This document shows, piece by piece, positions 54,407 through 64,000 of a stretch of 64,000 nt of DNA. The position numbers were made by a program, and so were the translations under genes. The number at the start of each line of letters is the position of its first letter. The stretch's first letter is position 1. A model generated the notes under the pieces. It saw only the letters and a list, made by a program, of their open reading frames with translations. It searched no databases and was not told the DNA's origin. The stretch spans positions 2,805 through 66,804 of the forward strand of contig CABUGH010000006.1 in assembly GCA_902491155.1 (NCBI GenBank), read 5' to 3'. The DNA is from an uncultured Clostridium sp. (GTDB lineage Bacteria; Bacillota; Clostridia; TANB77; CAG-508).

Positions 54407-54483
54407 GGGTCAATAGCTCAGTTGGATAGAGCACACGCCTTCTAAGCGTGGGGTCGGGGGTTCGAACCCCTCTTGGCCCACCA
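54407..54483 (+). tRNA. tRNA-Arg (TCT)
   Basis: GGGTCAATAGCTCAGTTGGATAGAGCACACGCCTTCTAAGCGTGGGGTCGGGGGTTCGAACCCCTCTTGGCCCACCA. The anticodon loop is CTTCTAA and the acceptor stem has 7 bp. Confidence 0.9.
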
Positions 54484-55010: not shown

Positions 55011-55928
55011 TTATAATTTATCTATATATTTCTTTTTTATTACATAAGATGAATGTACGTAAATTCCTAATGTAACACTTACATTTGAGTGACCTAAAAT
55101 TTCACTTAATGATTTTACATCCATTCCTACTCTTACGCATTTTGTTGCAAATGTGTGTCTTAGACAATGAAATTTTTTATATTTTATATTACACCTTCTT
55201 AAAAGTCTCCTATATGTGTATCTATATCCTAAAGGTTCAATTAGTCTATCTTCTCTTCCTGTTAATATAAAAGCTTCTTTTGAATATTTTTTTGATAACT
55301 CTCTTAAATTTTCATATAATATTTTAGCTAATGGTATTTCTCTAATTGATTTTTTGGTTTTTGGACTTGTTAAAATTATTTTAGTATCATTTTTATTAAC
55401 ATATATTCTTTGTACAGTGTGTGTTACTTTTATTGATTTATTTTCAAAGTCAATGTCGCGCCATCTTAGTGCACATATTTCTCCTATTCTCATTCCAGAA
55501 TACATACTTATTAATATTCCTATTTCGTTTAATCGATTTGATTTTAGAATATAATTTTCTATTTTCCTTCTTTCTTTTTCATTAAATACTTCTACTTCTT
55601 CTTCTGTTGCTAATGGTGTTGATATTAAATCTAATTTGAAGTCCATATCATATTTTCTTTCTGCATATTTTAATACTGATTTTAATACTATTGTTATATC
55701 TTTAATTGTTTTATTTGATAATTTTTTTTGCAACCTTTCTATATATCTATTTATGTCTTCATTTCTTAAATCTTGTAGCCTTTTTCCTCCAAAATCTTTT
55801 TTTATGTATCTATTGATTTTAAAACTGTAATTTGAATATGTTGATTCTTTAATCCTTAGCTTTTTATATGATAGCCATTCATCACATATTTGGTCAAATT
55901 TTTCTTTTTCTACGTTTAATTGTTTCAT
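55011..55928 (-). CDS. Tyrosine-type site-specific recombinase/integrase
   Basis: SGMRIGEICALRWRDI (Arg box), HCLRHTFATKC and LGHSNVSVTLGIYVH (H-x-x-R … H … Y). 305 aa. Confidence 0.85.
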   Translation of the reverse strand: MKQLNVEKEKFDQICDEWLSYKKLRIKESTYSNYSFKINRYIKKDFGGKRLQDLRNEDINRYIERLQKKLSNKTIKDITIVLKSVLKYAERKYDMDFKLDLISTPLATEEEVEVFNEKERRKIENYILKSNRLNEIGILISMYSGMRIGEICALRWRDIDFENKSIKVTHTVQRIYVNKNDTKIILTSPKTKKSIREIPLAKILYENLRELSKKYSKEAFILTGREDRLIEPLGYRYTYRRLLRRCNIKYKKFHCLRHTFATKCVRVGMDVKSLSEILGHSNVSVTLGIYVHSSYVIKKKYIDKL

Positions 55929-56251
55929 TTTTTACCACTCCTATTTTTTTATTGATAAATATATCATATTGTTACCAATTGGAACAAAGTTATAGTTAGT
56001 TTTGTTTTTAGGTAAATTTATTTTTTTCATTTTTACATTGTGTTATATTTTATTGTTTAAACTCGTGAATATTATTTTAGTTTTTTGTAATACTAATAGT
56101 GTTATGTTTTATTATATATTTTTGTCGATTTTAGTCGAATTTTGAACTGATTCAGTTTTATTTTACCAATTGGAAATTTTCATATTTTTAGTTTGTTCTA
56201 TATTTATTTATTAATTGTTATACTTATTTATATCATATGGAGGTGCTCATT

Positions 56252-56590
56252 ATGGGATCAGATGTCAAATATACCATAGATTCTGCTATCGGTAAGGTTT
56301 TTAAATCTTATCGCAAAAAGCAAAATTTAACTCAAGATCAAATAGCAGAAAAGCTTGATATCTCTGAAAAATATATTTCTCGATTAGAAAATGGTAATAG
56401 TGGTGTTAAATTAGAAACTTTAATAAATTATATGAATATTTTAGGTATTGCACCTAATGTTGTTTTTAAGGATTTAATGACAAATAAAAATGTGGTTTTT
56501 CAAATAAATTTATCTCAAAAAATTAGTGAATTGTCTGATGATAGGCAACATTTTATTGATAAAATAGTTGATGATTTAAAAGTTTTATAA
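56252..56590 (+). CDS. XRE-family HTH regulator
   Basis: FKSYRKKQNLTQDQIAEKLDISEKYISRLENGNSGVKLETLINYMNILGI. GGAGGTG RBS lies upstream of the ATG at 56252. Confidence 0.8.
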   Translation: MGSDVKYTIDSAIGKVFKSYRKKQNLTQDQIAEKLDISEKYISRLENGNSGVKLETLINYMNILGIAPNVVFKDLMTNKNVVFQINLSQKISELSDDRQHFIDKIVDDLKVL

Positions 56591-58252: not shown

Positions 58253-59803
58253 GTGATTTATTTGAAATCTTTGTGGCTTAATAATATTGAATGTAAAACT
58301 GTTCCTTTAAATATTCCTGATATTTCTTGTGATGTTTGCATTATTGGTGGTGGAATTTTTGGTGTTTCTTGTGCATATTATTTGTCTAAAATTGGATTTA
58401 AGGTTATTCTCTTAGAAAAAGATAAGATTGCTAGTAAAACAACTGGTCATACTACCGGAAAAATAACAAGTCAACATGGACTTTTTTATAAACATTTAAT
58501 TGATGATTATGGATATAATTTTGCTAGATTATATCTGCAATCCAATGAAGAGGCTATTCAAAATATTAAAAATATTATTGATGCTGAAAAAATTTCTTGT
58601 GATTTTTCTTTTCAAAATAATTATATTTATGCAACTACAAAACAAGAACTATTAGATGTAAAATCTGAGATTAATGCTGTTCGTTCTTTAAATTTTCCTT
58701 GTGAATTTGCAACTAAAGTTGGCTTGCCTTTTGATACTCTTGGTAGTATATGTTTTAAGAACCAGGCTCAATTTAATCCTGTAAAATATGTTTATGGCCT
58801 TTGTAATTCTTTTGGTAATTTTGTGAAAATTTTTAATAATACTACTGTTACTGATATTTGTAGAGATGGTAATAATTATATTTGCTTTGCTTCTAATTCT
58901 CCTGTTGATTATTTTTATAAGTATGATAAAAAATCTACTAATTATAAAATAAAATCAAAATATGTTATTATGGCTTCTCATTATCCTTTTATAAAATTCC
59001 CTGGTTTTTATTTTACTAAAATGTATCAATCAACTTCTTATGTTATTGCAATTGACCCTAAAAAAACATTGTTTAATGGTATGTTTTTGAGTGCTGGTAC
59101 TCCTTCTCTTTCGTTTAGAACTGCTAAATATGGTAATAAAAACTTGCTTTTAATTGCTGGCTCTGATCATAAAACTGGTTCTTATTGCACAGATGCTTCT
59201 TCTTATAAGGTTTTGGAAGATGTTGCATATAATTATTATCCTAATTGTGAAATATTGTATCGTTGGAATACTCGTGATTGTATCTCTTTAGATAAAATTC
59301 CATATGTTGGTTTATTTTCTAATTCTATGCCTAATCTATATATTGGTACTGGGTTTAAAAAATGGGGTATGACATTATCTAATGTTGCTTCAAATATTAT
59401 TGTTGATATGATTACTAACAAACACAATTCTTATTGTTCTTTGTATTCTTCTGATCGTTTTAATCCTATAAAAAATAAAGATGAATTTAAAAATGTGTTA
59501 GTTCAATCTGCAAAATCTTTAGTAATAGATAAAATAAAGAAAGTAGATCTTGATTTCAGTTCTATTCCTTTAAACTCTGGTGGAATTATTGAAATTAATA
59601 ATCAAAAAGTTGGGATTTTTCGTGACTATAATGATAATATTTTTGCTCTTAAACCTTTTTGTACTCATTTAGGTTGTTTGCTTTCTTGGAATGATGTTGA
59701 TAAATCTTGGGATTGTCCTTGTCATGGATCTCGCTTTAATTTTGATGGTAAAAATCTGTATGATCCAGCATTTAAAGATTTGGAAATTTATAATTTAGAT
59801 TAA
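58253..59803 (+). CDS. FAD-dependent oxidoreductase with a C-terminal Rieske [2Fe-2S] domain
   Basis: CIIGGGIFGVSCAYYL dinucleotide-binding motif. Rieske motif CTHLGCLLSW…CPCHGSRF. Confidence 0.8.
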   Translation: MIYLKSLWLNNIECKTVPLNIPDISCDVCIIGGGIFGVSCAYYLSKIGFKVILLEKDKIASKTTGHTTGKITSQHGLFYKHLIDDYGYNFARLYLQSNEEAIQNIKNIIDAEKISCDFSFQNNYIYATTKQELLDVKSEINAVRSLNFPCEFATKVGLPFDTLGSICFKNQAQFNPVKYVYGLCNSFGNFVKIFNNTTVTDICRDGNNYICFASNSPVDYFYKYDKKSTNYKIKSKYVIMASHYPFIKFPGFYFTKMYQSTSYVIAIDPKKTLFNGMFLSAGTPSLSFRTAKYGNKNLLLIAGSDHKTGSYCTDASSYKVLEDVAYNYYPNCEILYRWNTRDCISLDKIPYVGLFSNSMPNLYIGTGFKKWGMTLSNVASNIIVDMITNKHNSYCSLYSSDRFNPIKNKDEFKNVLVQSAKSLVIDKIKKVDLDFSSIPLNSGGIIEINNQKVGIFRDYNDNIFALKPFCTHLGCLLSWNDVDKSWDCPCHGSRFNFDGKNLYDPAFKDLEIYNLD

Positions 59804-60026: not shown

Positions 60027-62525
60027 CTACTTATTCAATTCTGGATTATCATTTAATATTTTTTCAACAATATTGTCATCTAATGCAAATGGTACAACAT
60101 ATCCTTCTAAAGAATTTACTTTTTCTTTTAAAACTTCATTCTCTTGGTTTACGTATATTTTTGATTTTCCTTTTCCATTTTTAGCTTCTTGTACTAAATT
60201 TGATACTGGTGAATTTCCGTCAAATGCTATTACTATAGCCTTTCTCCTTTCAAATATTTCGTAATTAAAGCTTTTATAAATTCCTAATTCTTCACTTTCT
60301 GTAGAAATTCTAACTCCTGTAATTTCTTTGTCTTCTAATTTTTCTTTTACTTCTTCATTTACCATTTTAGGTATAATTGCATCTATTTCAAATTTCTTTT
60401 GATATTTTTTTGACGCATCTACTATTGCTTTTTCATAACCCTCTAATTTGTGTCCTATTACAAAATATACCTTTTGTGTATCTAACTGTTTTATTAAATT
60501 TTCTATTATTTTTTTTCCTTTTTCGTTTATATTTGTTGTTCTTCCTTTTTTATTAAAACTTCCTCCTGCTATGATGACTGGAATTTTATTACTTGGTAAT
60601 TCTTTTATTTTATATTTTAATACTTTTTCTGATTCTACTGTACTTGTGATTCTTAAATCTCCTTCTTCATCTTTTATTTTTTCTAATTCTTTATCTTCTT
60701 GTTCTAAAATTGCTTCTCTTATACTTCTTCCATTTAGGAATTTTTTAAATCTTTCTGATTTCTCTTTAAAATATATATCATTTTCTTGTATTAAATTGTC
60801 TTCAACTTCTCTCATTTGCTTAAATTCGCTATCTGTTACACCTAATAAATTTCTTAGTGCAAGTTGTTCGTCAAATGTGTTTGTTCCATAAAATCCATTT
60901 CCATCTGTTCCTTGTACACATTTTACTCCATTTTTTAAGAATCTTTTTATTGGATGATTTTCCAATGTACTTAGGTTATTTAATCGTATATTTGATGTTA
61001 ATTGAAATTCTATAATAGTATTTGTTTGTTTCATTTTATCCATTAATGCCTTTCCTTCTTCTGTATTCGGATCTTTTGAATATAATCCATGTCCTATTCT
61101 TATTCTTGGCATTTCTTGTTCTGGTCTTAATGATTGTTCTACACATTTTATTGACTTTTCCACATTATCTTTTAAACTGTCATTTTCTCCAGCATGTATT
61201 CTTACTGTAAAACCTTTGTCATAATATGCAATATCTTGTACTATTTGCTTTATTGCTGGCTTTAAATCTTCTATATCATTTATTTCTTCTCCTATAAAGT
61301 CGCTTCCAACAACATATGGATCTTTTGCTACTGCTTTTAGAACACATAAGTTTTCTCTTAAATATTTGTCACTTGTTGTTTGATCTTTTATTATTGTTAA
61401 TACTATTCTTCTTATTCCTGCTAAGAATCTTATTTTTACACCTGTTTCTTCCTCTATTTTTGGTAATATTTCATGAATTTCTTCTAATAATTTTATTGCT
61501 GGCATACCTAATTTTACTAGGTCTGTGTCTGTTATTTCTACATATTTTATTCCTTGTTTTTGATATTCTCTTGCAATCCATAATAATTTATCTTGTCTTA
61601 TTACATTGTTTTTATATGGACTTTCTGAATTATTGTCTTGCAACATCTTTATAACTATTTCTTTTATATCTTTTTCTGGTATTTTGTTTATCATTTCTTC
61701 TGTTAATTCAATTTTGTTTTTTGATGGAGTTCCTTTTGCAAATACATATCTATATATATAACATTTTTCTAAGTTTGTAAAAACTGCTTGACCATCTTTT
61801 AATATTGATAAGCTTACTCTTATTTTTTCTATATTTTTTTCTGCATCTTCTAAGTTGTTTAATATAAAATCCGCAAAGTTTATAAATGTATTGTCATCTA
61901 TTTTTCTTGTTAAATATTTTCCTGTTAATTGTGAATTTTCAAATTGTTTTTCAACTTCTTTTCTTTGTTTTATAATTTTTTCTTCTTGCTTTTTTGACAT
62001 CTTTAAATTTAATTTTTTAATGTAATATAGTGGATATTGTATTTGATGCTTTATTCCTAATGCTATTAAACAGTCTGGTGTTAATATTGCATTCATATGT
62101 GTGTGTAAATCTGTTCTAAATTTACTTTGTTTTAATATATATGTTTTTACAAATGTTTTACCTATTGGTAATTTATATTTTTTTGTTTGTGACATTAGTG
62201 TTTTGCTTATTGCTGGTATTTGTGCTTTTATTTCTATTTTGTTGTTATATATATTGGCAACTTTAATTCCACCTAGTCTAAATATGTATACTTCTTTGTT
62301 TTCCTCGTTTATCATTGCTTGTATTTTGCCTTTTATTATTTTCATGTCATTTTCATTTTTTTCTGTCTCTAAATGGCATATTTTTGCTAAATTTGTTATT
62401 AATGTTCCTTTTTTATGGTTTGGGGTTTCTAATATATATGTAATTTCATCTTGTGATGTTTGATATAAATTTACAATAATATCTTTTTCTTTATCCAAAT
62501 AAAATTTGTTGAATAATTTTTTCAT
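60027..62525 (-). CDS. Adenosine-deaminase-fold (amidohydrolase) protein with an unknown N-terminal domain and a C-terminal SLOG/LOG-like Rossmann domain
   Basis: 832 aa. ADA-type motifs are DLHTHMNA (HxH), VRIHAGEN (HAGE), IGHGLY, FQLTSNIRLN and VQGTDGNGF. The C-terminal ~190 aa (KIPVIIAGGSFNKKGR…VYFVIGHKLEGYEKAI…IVIAFDGNSPVSNLVQEA) resemble LOG/SLOG Rossmann modules. Confidence 0.6.
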   Translation of the reverse strand: MKKLFNKFYLDKEKDIIVNLYQTSQDEITYILETPNHKKGTLITNLAKICHLETEKNENDMKIIKGKIQAMINEENKEVYIFRLGGIKVANIYNNKIEIKAQIPAISKTLMSQTKKYKLPIGKTFVKTYILKQSKFRTDLHTHMNAILTPDCLIALGIKHQIQYPLYYIKKLNLKMSKKQEEKIIKQRKEVEKQFENSQLTGKYLTRKIDDNTFINFADFILNNLEDAEKNIEKIRVSLSILKDGQAVFTNLEKCYIYRYVFAKGTPSKNKIELTEEMINKIPEKDIKEIVIKMLQDNNSESPYKNNVIRQDKLLWIAREYQKQGIKYVEITDTDLVKLGMPAIKLLEEIHEILPKIEEETGVKIRFLAGIRRIVLTIIKDQTTSDKYLRENLCVLKAVAKDPYVVGSDFIGEEINDIEDLKPAIKQIVQDIAYYDKGFTVRIHAGENDSLKDNVEKSIKCVEQSLRPEQEMPRIRIGHGLYSKDPNTEEGKALMDKMKQTNTIIEFQLTSNIRLNNLSTLENHPIKRFLKNGVKCVQGTDGNGFYGTNTFDEQLALRNLLGVTDSEFKQMREVEDNLIQENDIYFKEKSERFKKFLNGRSIREAILEQEDKELEKIKDEEGDLRITSTVESEKVLKYKIKELPSNKIPVIIAGGSFNKKGRTTNINEKGKKIIENLIKQLDTQKVYFVIGHKLEGYEKAIVDASKKYQKKFEIDAIIPKMVNEEVKEKLEDKEITGVRISTESEELGIYKSFNYEIFERRKAIVIAFDGNSPVSNLVQEAKNGKGKSKIYVNQENEVLKEKVNSLEGYVVPFALDDNIVEKILNDNPELNK

Positions 62526-62656
62526 TTATGGTTCCTCCCTAAACTATTTTTACTACGTTTTTTACAATGGTTATATTTTATTTTATCATAAATTTAGTTT
62601 TAAATCAATATTTATGTAAATTTTATTTGCAAATAAAGGTGTAGGTTTAAAATAGA

Positions 62657-63022
62657 TATGTCACACGAAAATTGAAAATAAAATATTGAAAGAGAGCACG
62701 AAAAATGATATTGTTTAAGTGAACGAAAGATAAACATATCGGAGGTGCTCTCTTATTGGTAATAATATCACAAATAAATTAAAATATAAAGAGTCTGTAG
62801 TAAAATTTTCATATAAATATGGAGTAACAAAAGCAGCAATAAAATTTTGTGAATGTAGAAGGACTATTTATAGATGGAGAAAAAGAATATAATAATTTTC
62901 CAATGAGACCATTAAGATGGTTAAGCCCCAATGAATTCATAAAACAATATAAAAGTCAATGAGAATCACTTCTAACAGTATAAAGTGTTCAAAGTATATA
63001 TTTTTCAAAAAAGTGTGACATA
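62657..63022. mobile_element. Internally deleted IS relic (IS481/IS3-like) with short terminal inverted repeats
   Basis: ATATGTCACAC at 62656-62666 pairs with GTGTGACATAT at 63013-63023. Inside are an HTH fragment YGVTKAAIKFCECRRTIYRWRKR and a transposase C-terminal-like fragment RPLRWLSPNEFIKQYK, in different frames. Confidence 0.5.
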
Positions 63023-63080
63023 TGATTGAGTAGCCTATAGTATTTTCCTAGAATTTTATTCAATTCTCTTGAAAGTTTAT

Positions 63081-63149
63081 TGTAATTGATCTATTCTATT
63101 GTTGTAGATAATCAATTACTAACTGTGAATCAATTACACTGTAATTGAT
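63081..63149. promoter_or_regulatory. Four copies of a 10-bp motif (TGTAATTGAT / ATCAATTACA) arranged as two inverted pairs; candidate operator array
   Basis: Copies at 63081-90, 63111-19, 63129-38 and 63140-49. The last pair forms a 21-bp palindrome overlapping a putative -35 (TTGATT), with TACAAT downstream. Confidence 0.5.
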
Positions 63150-63203
63150 TTTACGTGTCAATAGCTTACAATAAAATAATTTAAAAAATTGGGAGATAAA
63201 AAT

Positions 63204-64000
63204 ATGAAAGTTAATTTTAGAATTGAATCATCTTCTTTTTGCTATGTATTTAATAAATACAAAATAGAAGAAATTAAAGGAACAAAATATATATTACCTG
63301 AAAAAAATGCTACAAAAAGAACTATTAGCGTAACGGAAAATATTGATGAACTACTTATTGAAATTCTAAATATTGGTAAAAAAGTTTTCTATAAAGAACC
63401 TATTGAATATATTGAATTACTTAACTTCTATTCTAAATATGGCTCTTTCGGTTTCATGATAGATTTAGCAATAAGCAAATATTTTATATTTGAAGATAAA
63501 GTTGCAGTAAGAGATCCATTCTATATAAATAATAAAAAAAATGTTGATTTTATGAATGTAGATGAGTATTTAAAGTTCTTCTTACCTAAATTAAATAAAC
63601 GAGATATAAATTCTTTAATAAAGAAATGCAAAGATATTGCAACTGATATTAAAAAAGAAAGTTATTTAACATCTATTATAAATGAATATTTAATTTACAA
63701 TGAGAACTACGCAGAGTCTGTTGAATTAGTTTTAAATTATGCTAGGTCATTATATAAAACTTTATCTTATACATTAGATAATAAGAATGTAACAATGGAT
63801 TTACCTTTCTTAAATGCAAATCATATAACATTTAATATAATAGAATTATATTTTAATAATAGTTTTGGAATTACAATAAATTATTTAAAGCAAGCTATTG
63901 ATATAGCTTATTCAATGCAAATGGCTCAAGATGTTAGATTGCTTAAAGTTTGTAATTTCTGTAATAAGGCTTTTATTGCTAATAATCCAAAAGCTGAATA
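63204..64000 (+). CDS. Hypothetical protein, 3'-truncated by the window edge
   Basis: GGGAG RBS 8 nt upstream of the ATG. I translated it by hand to nt 64000 and found no stop. It ends …RLLKVCNFCNKAFIANNPKAE, possibly the start of a zinc ribbon. It is absent from the ORF track, presumably because no stop codon lies in the window. Confidence 0.6.
   Translation, partial: MKVNFRIESSSFCYVFNKYKIEEIKGTKYILPEKNATKRTISVTENIDELLIEILNIGKKVFYKEPIEYIELLNFYSKYGSFGFMIDLAISKYFIFEDKVAVRDPFYINNKKNVDFMNVDEYLKFFLPKLNKRDINSLIKKCKDIATDIKKESYLTSIINEYLIYNENYAESVELVLNYARSLYKTLSYTLDNKNVTMDLPFLNANHITFNIIELYFNNSFGITINYLKQAIDIAYSMQMAQDVRLLKVCNFCNKAFIANNPKAE

Follow-up and report, generated by a model that had tools for sequence, protein, structure and literature searches.

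Deaminases have recently come to light that convert ATP or dATP to ITP or dITP and serve as immune effectors or make signals (RADAR, Cad1 and Kongming), and each of them needs partner proteins; in RADAR, the deaminase RdrB has an obligatory ATPase partner, RdrA. RdrB and the Kongming protein KomA are both deaminases of the adenosine deaminase (ADA) fold, and Cad1 carries a Rossmann-like nucleotide sensor, an N-terminal CARF domain, on the same polypeptide as its ADA-fold deaminase. KomA is an anti-phage enzyme making ITP or dITP-class nucleotides and works together with KomB (HAM1) and KomC (SIR2) (bioRxiv 10.1101/2024.12.20.629578). A different enzyme effector is joined to a C-terminal SLOG sensor in ThsA (Thoeris, SIR2-SLOG), the SLOG domain of which binds cyclic ADP-ribose (ADPR) isomers and switches the enzyme on (PMC9503650). 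Here, we describe a gene for an 832-amino acid (aa) protein in a 64,000-nucleotide stretch of contig CABUGH010000006.1 (positions 2,805 to 66,804; assembly GCA_902491155.1), referred to as the window, which comes from a lineage of uncultured low-GC gut Clostridia. The protein combines an N-terminal family-specific domain, an ADA-fold core and a C-terminal SLOG-type domain, and our favoured explanation, to which we assign a probability of about one half, is that it would act as a self-contained, single-chain, ligand-regulated adenine-nucleotide deaminase.

A preliminary description of this DNA, made from the sequence alone, had proposed this three-part architecture, which is borne out by a Pfam match for the ADA core, by a SLOG fold found with Foldseek and by a separate N-terminal domain in the structural model. 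The full-length AlphaFold2 model, for which 50 diverse relatives served as alignment rows, has a predicted local distance difference test score (pLDDT) of 91.9 and a predicted template-modelling score (pTM) of 0.92, and consists of the N-terminal domain, the ADA barrel, a helical linker and a beta-alpha-beta C-terminal domain, with the three domains predicted to pack as one compact unit. When the three segments were scanned with Pfam, NCBIfam and PADLOC, the ADA core alone was detected. All three domains are under purifying selection, with ratios of non-synonymous to synonymous substitution rates (dN/dS) of ~0.07-0.25 in the N-terminal, ADA and SLOG domains alike within the window's clade; the linker alone is more relaxed, and it is also the least conserved segment (identity 29-76% vs 54-81% for the domains).

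The core is matched by Pfam A_deaminase (PF00962) over aa 317-572 (E = 3.6e-21, 76 bits vs a cut-off of 27) and carries a large helical insertion of ~170 aa (aa ~150-325). Foldseek searches with the whole model are led by ADA1, ADAL, bacterial Add and adenine deaminase (E ~3e-11; TM(target) 0.68-0.77), with Cad1 structures from rank 34 onward and RdrB absent from the top 50 matches. Every motif quoted in the preliminary description is present, in the order given there: DLHTHMNA (aa 139-146, with HxH at 141/143), RIHAGEN (442-448; HAGE at 444-447), the GHG motif (478-480) within IGHGLY (477-482), TSN (510-512; SN at 511-512) and GTDGNG (539-544; TDG at 540-542). Their correspondence to known residues was derived from an alignment of the family and from a profile alignment with Salmonella Add (6n9m). 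TDLHTH, HAGE, RIGHG, SN and the metal-binding Asp are conserved across 50/50 diverse relatives and align to Add; H141/H143, H444/E447, H479 and D541 vary little or not at all among these relatives, and the metal-binding and catalytic residues are identical to those of Add. Judged by these motifs, none of the zinc-binding and catalytic elements of the adenosine/AMP-deaminase superfamily is missing from the central domain, and the deaminase domain of the window protein is probably active.

The positions that contact adenosine are different. In classical ADA, two aspartates contact the ribose 5'-OH and the purine N7. The residue two past HxH, Asp in Add ('HLDG'), is Asn145 in the window protein and Ser or Ala in its relatives, and the second Asp of the Add 'TDD' is Gly542 (TDG), a replacement that had been remarked on for this protein and that the profile alignment finds family-wide. 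The family consensus at these positions is HxH-x-[S/A/N] and TDG and lacks the classical Asp pair. ADAL/MAPDA (N6-methyl-AMP deaminase), which acts on AMP derivatives, carries Asn at the first of them. Because both adenosine-contacting aspartates are replaced throughout the family, the substrate is probably a phosphorylated or other non-adenosine adenine compound (AMP, ATP/dATP or a member of the ADP-ribose/NAD class). By sequence and fold, the core is closest to Add and ADAL/MAPDA, but the window protein, at 2.4 times the length, has two further domains and the helical insertion, and it scores 57 bits against a cut-off of 216.55 with the Add equivalogs (NCBIfam TIGR01430 / PRK09358), all eight models compared being far under their cut-offs.

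For the C-terminal domain, the Foldseek query was a model in which the N- and C-terminal domains directly follow each other, built on an alignment of full-length homologues (pLDDT 88), and the resulting list was dominated by the SLOG domain. All matches belong to the SLOG superfamily, and the TRPM 'LSDAT' branch ranks first: the N-terminal MHR1/2 regions of TRPM4, TRPM8, TRPM2 and TRPM3, LOG proteins (5its, 7w2i and 5zbl; E ~4e-4) and molybdenum cofactor (Moco)-carrier proteins (2iz5-7 and 6y01), at E ~1e-4 to 1e-3 and a probability of 1.0. Some of the TRPM entries are ligand-bound (TRPM4 with ATP, TRPM2 with ADPR), and DprA-like matches were obtained in a viral library. By sequence, Pfam LSDAT_prok (PF18171) matches 7 of 50 family members (best E 4e-5); the window's own C-terminal domain has no Pfam match, LSDAT_prok included, and its profile reaches TRPM2 and LOG among PDB sequences below threshold only (E ~0.75). 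A search of 5.8 billion proteins with this domain returned fragments of the same family only and no other architectures. Membership of the SLOG superfamily is confirmed by the modelled fold, and membership of the LSDAT branch is supported by fold and relatives, the window protein itself being sub-threshold by sequence.

The glycine-rich loops of this domain have the family consensus PIxITGAS, YFVTGGTxxGVEK, IAIGGGxVVxDxIQ and LMxGxGAS. In the window's clade the loops are changed to IIAGGS (aa 651-656 of the window protein), YFVIGHKxxGYEK (VIGHKLEGYE, 689-698) and IAFDGNSPVSNLxQEA (FDGNSPVSNLVQEA, 768-781), so that IGHKxxGYEK stands in for TGGTxxGVEK and FDGNSPVSNLVQEA for GGGxVVxDxIQ, and the variant residues are conserved inside the clade. 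The LOG catalytic motif PGGxGTxxE is absent from the window protein and from all family loops, the acidic residue in GGGxVVxDxIQ being out of register. Because the domain has a SLOG fold and lacks this motif, it is more likely to be a binding or regulatory module than a nucleosidase, as the preliminary description had supposed, and since it is under purifying selection like the other domains, it would be functional, though not as a LOG-type hydrolase.

The N-terminal ~130 aa, in which no relatives had been recognised, indeed have no match in Pfam, including a scan of 30 N-terminal domains, or among PDB sequences in a profile search. The domain is conserved family-wide, ends in a conserved helix/loop motif (consensus LTxFExR ... 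PxxR) and is the most conserved domain within the window's clade (dN 0.04-0.13); it may be an additional regulatory or assembly module.

How does this protein compare with the described systems? Where Cad1 has its CARF domain at the N-terminus, the SLOG/LSDAT domain lies here at the C-terminus and is accompanied by an extra N-terminal domain. The PADLOC model CARF_ADA matches main-clade members through their ADA part (E down to 4e-18), no CARF domain is detected in the window protein by Pfam or PADLOC, and neither cas10 nor a type III CRISPR locus is present in the annotated neighbourhoods of the window, conspecifics or relatives. A special evolutionary tie to Cad1 was considered and rejected, the family profile matching Cad1 with E 1.5e-5 vs 2e-21 for bacterial Add. 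The likeness to ThsA lies in the order of effector and sensor; the effector is an ADA domain in place of a SIR2 NADase, and the SLOG domain is LSDAT-like in place of YpsA-like. No TIR or ThsB gene is found in the window, at conspecific loci or among the 25 commonest families of the 142 neighbouring genes of relatives, several neighbours being without Pfam match. The window protein likewise has no PADLOC match to RdrB, and in the window and in conspecifics there is no adjacent large ATPase and no HAM1 or SIR2 match among the neighbours. No cyclase, TIR, Cas10, RdrA or KomBC partner lies near the gene. The MHR1/2 (LSDAT) modules of TRPM channels, the best structural matches to the C-terminal domain, are non-catalytic and nucleotide-binding, and TRPM2 shares with some family members the possession of a NUDIX domain; unlike in TRPM channels, the domain is joined here to a deaminase and not to a channel, and in the window protein its glycine loops are altered and its sequence falls under Pfam detection. 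The window protein is thus a member of the ADA and SLOG superfamilies and not of the Cad1, ThsA, RADAR or Kongming families. In line with the preliminary view that the fusion is unreported, a full-text literature search found no ADA-SLOG paper, only reviews naming both domains separately; the 2015 paper defining SLOG/LSDAT lies outside the coverage of that search, so that a prior in-silico mention is possible.

The family is large. An exhaustive HMMER search over 1.84 billion cluster representatives (50% identity clusters) yielded 849 clusters at E<1e-3 and 161 at E<1e-30, among them many proteins of 750-1000 aa with ~30% identity that span the N-terminal domain, ADA core and SLOG domain and are at present annotated merely as 'adenosine deaminase'. 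The GC content of family loci ranges from 24% to 73%, and the three-domain module is therefore old and widespread. Two members carry a C-terminal NUDIX domain (P0393, aa 727-883; P0400, C-terminus), and these ADA-SLOG-NUDIX proteins repeat the LSDAT and NUDIX pairing of the TRPM2 channel. At L043:3-12857 (+) on contig Ga0214917_10001093, a single ORF (open reading frame) encodes at least 4284 aa and has a start resembling a signal peptide. It contains a complete N-domain/ADA/SLOG module at aa 2541-3268 (654 bits with the family profile), beyond which lies a Fic motif (HPFFDGNGR, ~aa 3845), and from its sequence looks like a giant multi-effector secreted toxin.

The neighbourhoods of distant members were examined in 52 metagenomic loci and six loci from exact look-ups. 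Within two positions of the ADA-SLOG gene, 142 genes represent 126 different Pfam families, none of which dominates; in the absence of a recurrent operon partner, the enzyme appears functionally autonomous. DNA methylases and resolvases recur among these neighbours. In one lineage a cas9-cas1-cas2 operon lies directly downstream of ADA-SLOG, with a resolvase upstream; in another, a methylase and ToxN follow the gene, and in a third it resides inside an integrase- and HTH-rich (helix-turn-helix) island. Such conflict-type contexts are confined to distant family members. NAPRTase (pncB) and NAD synthetase genes recur as divergent neighbours in one high-GC subclade (70-84% mutual identity), which may hint at a link to NAD metabolism or may reflect lineage synteny only; two nadE-type NAD-synthetase genes were counted among the neighbours and probably belong to this subclade. 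In nine low-GC main-clade loci, a ~150-aa gene overlaps or abuts the ADA-SLOG stop codon (20 nt off in L063). Its product has the motifs YNPDNIFKN and, in a C-terminal amphipathic segment, KWYQKIFxKI..FKK, has no Pfam, PHROG or PADLOC match and has paralogues that follow other unknown genes (~300 aa) at these loci. As a partner, adaptor or immunity protein, it may be common to several cassettes. This gene is absent from the window.

In the explanation we favour, the deaminase would convert a phosphorylated adenine nucleotide to its hypoxanthine analogue, and the SLOG domain would bind a nucleotide-type ligand and gate or tune the deaminase via the long helical linker. Since none of the neighbouring genes is conserved as a maker of a signal, the ligand would have to be a metabolite of the cell or of an infection and not a dedicated second messenger. 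Other lineages appear to employ the module in conflicts, and the contexts of the family together with the giant toxin fusion suggest that its activity can do harm and serves such conflicts. For the window lineage, we favour a built-in nucleotide-pool switch over a mobile defence cassette; the switch would act in adenylate homeostasis or in an arrest brought on by stress or infection.

Several observations weigh against this explanation. The gene occupies the same place in 6/6 distinct conspecific contigs, which were retrieved via the neighbouring M18 peptidase. A species with 78% identity has the order ADA, M18 peptidase, XRE and integrase in common with the window, and in two species at 72-73% identity the gene lies between pheST and ylxM-ffh-rpsP-rimM-trmD. 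The window protein has no PADLOC match, and three different queries found no member of the family in 50,697 phage records, 72,556 plasmids and IMG/VR. A gene that is fixed, syntenic and chromosomal in its lineage and missing from phages and plasmids would be no less expected for a physiological enzyme than for one of immunity. Furthermore, the conflict contexts of distant members are single lineages, observed as individual cases, and the family profile is closer to housekeeping Add than to Cad1. The proposed substrate class leans on known ADA and ADAL structures, and in the window's clade the degenerate glycine loops of the SLOG domain may mean that ligand binding is altered or lost. The anti-phage role put forward in the preliminary description found no backing: besides the lack of PADLOC matches and of mobile-element members, there is no signalling partner nearby. 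The accessory context claimed there does not hold for the gene's own lineage, conflict-type neighbours being limited to distant members; in the window lineage (6/6 contigs, syntenic, under purifying selection) the gene is fixed, chromosomal and partly syntenic between species, and not accessory.

The most probable alternative, which we think has a real chance of being right, although it is not the explanation we prefer, is this: a housekeeping, allosteric AMP or adenine-nucleotide deaminase that balances adenylate charge and feeds IMP/GMP synthesis, with no role in conflicts. In a small-genome gut Clostridium it would be a functional analogue of eukaryotic AMP deaminase or of AMP nucleosidase, and the SLOG and N-terminal domains would be feedback sites for ATP, GTP or ADPR. 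It accords with the presence of the gene in all six conspecific contexts, with purifying selection on all domains, with the missing PADLOC match and mobile-element members, and with orthologues of 55-83% identity in at least ten related species, partly syntenic in core regions (pheST to ffh-rpsP-trmD; tadA). In three of these species tadA lies at most 5 kb upstream (in L002 and L067 it is the directly adjoining gene, in L069 the distance is ~5 kb). However, no gene for purine metabolism, salvage or transport adjoins ADA-SLOG in the window or in the annotated conspecific and relatives' loci, synteny of this kind being what the preliminary description had named as speaking for an ordinary purine enzyme, and the score with the NCBIfam 'add' equivalogs is far under the cut-off (57 vs 216 bits). 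Distant members that have defence or mobile surroundings, or that form part of a giant protein resembling a toxin, also speak against it, as do the LSDAT_prok relatives of the C-terminal domain, which have been described from conflict systems.

Decidedly less probable is an enzyme acting on NAD+, ADPR or a cyclic-ADPR-type signal, which would process, quench or generate a signalling nucleotide, with the SLOG domain recruiting the substrate. Hints of such a link come from the ADPR-binding MHR1/2 of TRPM2 among the nearest structural relatives of the C-terminal domain, from the ADA-SLOG-NUDIX fusions, which mirror the LSDAT and NUDT9H pair of TRPM2, from the divergent pncB and nadE genes of the 70-84%-identity subclade, and from a NUDIX gene three genes upstream in the divergent operon of the window's species; moreover, Gly in place of the N7-contacting Asp would open the pocket. 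The linkage to NAD genes is that of a single lineage, however, and perhaps plain synteny, NUDIX domains take many substrates, and no TIR, ART or sirtuin gene lies near any annotated locus; we know of no ADA-fold enzyme with NAD or ADPR specificity. A bifunctional purine-salvage enzyme, combining the deaminase with an active LOG-type nucleotide N-glycosidase, was the dull alternative of the preliminary description and is highly improbable: LOG proteins are among the structural matches (E ~4e-4), but PGGxGTxxE is missing (FDGNSPVSNLVQEA in the window; GGGxVVxDxIQ, out of register, in the family), the fold is matched best by the non-catalytic LSDAT domains of TRPM, the Pfam matches of relatives are to LSDAT_prok and not to LOG/Lysine_decarbox, and there is no synteny with purine genes.

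In the window, the gene has a GC content of 25%, matching the remainder of the window, and is monocistronic (Table 1). It is convergent with the gene downstream (58253-59803, +), which encodes a DAO-type FAD oxidoreductase with a C-terminal Rieske [2Fe-2S] domain and lies between the ADA gene and an M18 aminopeptidase gene; this DAO-Rieske gene is missing at the matching position in the 78%-identity relative (L006) and is split into two ORFs in a conspecific contig (L074). In another conspecific contig (L072), two intact transposase genes are inserted downstream of the ADA gene. Further away, tRNA-Arg(TCT) (54407-54483) is followed by a 305-aa tyrosine integrase (55011-55928) and an XRE regulator (56237-56590), a typical integration site. 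The ADA gene was considered as cargo of a tRNA-Arg island, which was rejected, as no attR repeat occurs in 54.3-64 kb and the gene order is fixed in conspecifics.

On the other side, the insertion sequence (IS) relic reported upstream of the gene is indeed present, as a stop-riddled transposase HTH fragment. The frame, with KYGVTKAAIKFCECRRTIYRWRKR, resembles the HTH of IS3/IS481-type transposases and would be what remains of an IS in the promoter region of the ADA gene. The gene upstream of ADA-SLOG in L001-L003 was considered as a transposase in common with this relic and rejected, its product being an HtrA-like protease with a PDZ domain. The divergent gene beyond the relic begins at 63207 (+), runs past the end of the window at 64000 (L070:1089-2878) and encodes 316 aa in conspecific contigs, without a match in Pfam, PHROG or PADLOC; its start is closely preceded by an AT-rich inverted repeat, CAATTACAGTGTAATTG. 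In conspecific contigs, this divergent operon extends past the window edge and comprises the 316-aa unknown, DUF7695 and a 148-aa NUDIX protein.

Table 1. Coordinates of the ADA-SLOG gene, its domains and associated features; positions without a prefix are those of the window, and those with an L number refer to loci of relatives.
Feature	Position	Strand	Remarks
ORF, complete	60027-62525	-	832 aa plus stop codon (60027-60029); ATG start; intact
N-terminal family-specific domain, aa 1-135	62121-62525	-	~8 beta strands and 2 helices in the model; pLDDT 80-93
ADA-fold (beta/alpha)8 metallo-hydrolase core, aa 136-600	60726-62120	-	Pfam PF00962, Foldseek, motif alignment
Helical linker, aa 601-645	60591-60725	-	helices H565-597 and H602-617 in the model
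SLOG-superfamily (LSDAT/TRPM-MHR-like) Rossmannoid domain, aa 646-832	60030-60590	-	Foldseek, LSDAT_prok matches of relatives, motif comparison
Shine-Dalgarno sequence GGGAGG	~62534-62539	-	8 nt before the ATG of the ORF
Divergent intergenic region, 680 bp	62526-63206	.	promoter region of the ORF and degraded IS-transposase HTH fragment
Degraded IS-transposase helix-turn-helix fragment	~62700-62950	+	stop-riddled frame
ADA-SLOG divergent from pncB (NAPRTase)	L048:4674-7704, L055:5953-7278, L056:1268-4264, L060:789-2126	-	high-GC subclade
Type II CRISPR operon (cas9, cas1, cas2) 3' of ADA-SLOG	L029:10113-14574, also L030, L037		
~150-aa downstream gene	L014:10504-10965, L016:5795-6268, L017:3314-3760, L018:3104-3562	+	
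~150-aa downstream gene	L019:10501-10959, L031:1752-2198, L063:11188-11652	+	

Noteworthy here are the ADA-SLOG architecture, which appears to be new, and the large size of the family, the ADA and SLOG superfamilies themselves being already known. In a broader and more speculative proposal, which we consider on balance unlikely, the N-domain/ADA/SLOG proteins would be widespread single-protein, nucleotide-gated deaminase effectors, in which an ADPR- or ATP-type ligand on the SLOG domain would trigger bulk deamination of ATP/dATP or NAD/ADPR; they would serve as stand-alone immune or stress effectors and as cargo of giant secreted toxins, and their LSDAT sensor, at times paired with NUDIX, would share its ancestry with the TRPM2-type channels of animals. 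The window copy itself, as far as its sequence indicates, has a degenerate sensor pocket and core-like genomics. If the proposal is true, a single chain of ADA and TRPM-like SLOG domains would extend the principle of RADAR, Cad1 and Kongming to another sensor class, maybe with a direct response to ADPR- or ATP-type ligands, and would offer a tractable bacterial model of ligand recognition by LSDAT, the module gating TRPM2 and TRPM4. If the role is metabolic, no earlier example of a regulated AMP-deaminase-like enzyme would be known from bacteria.

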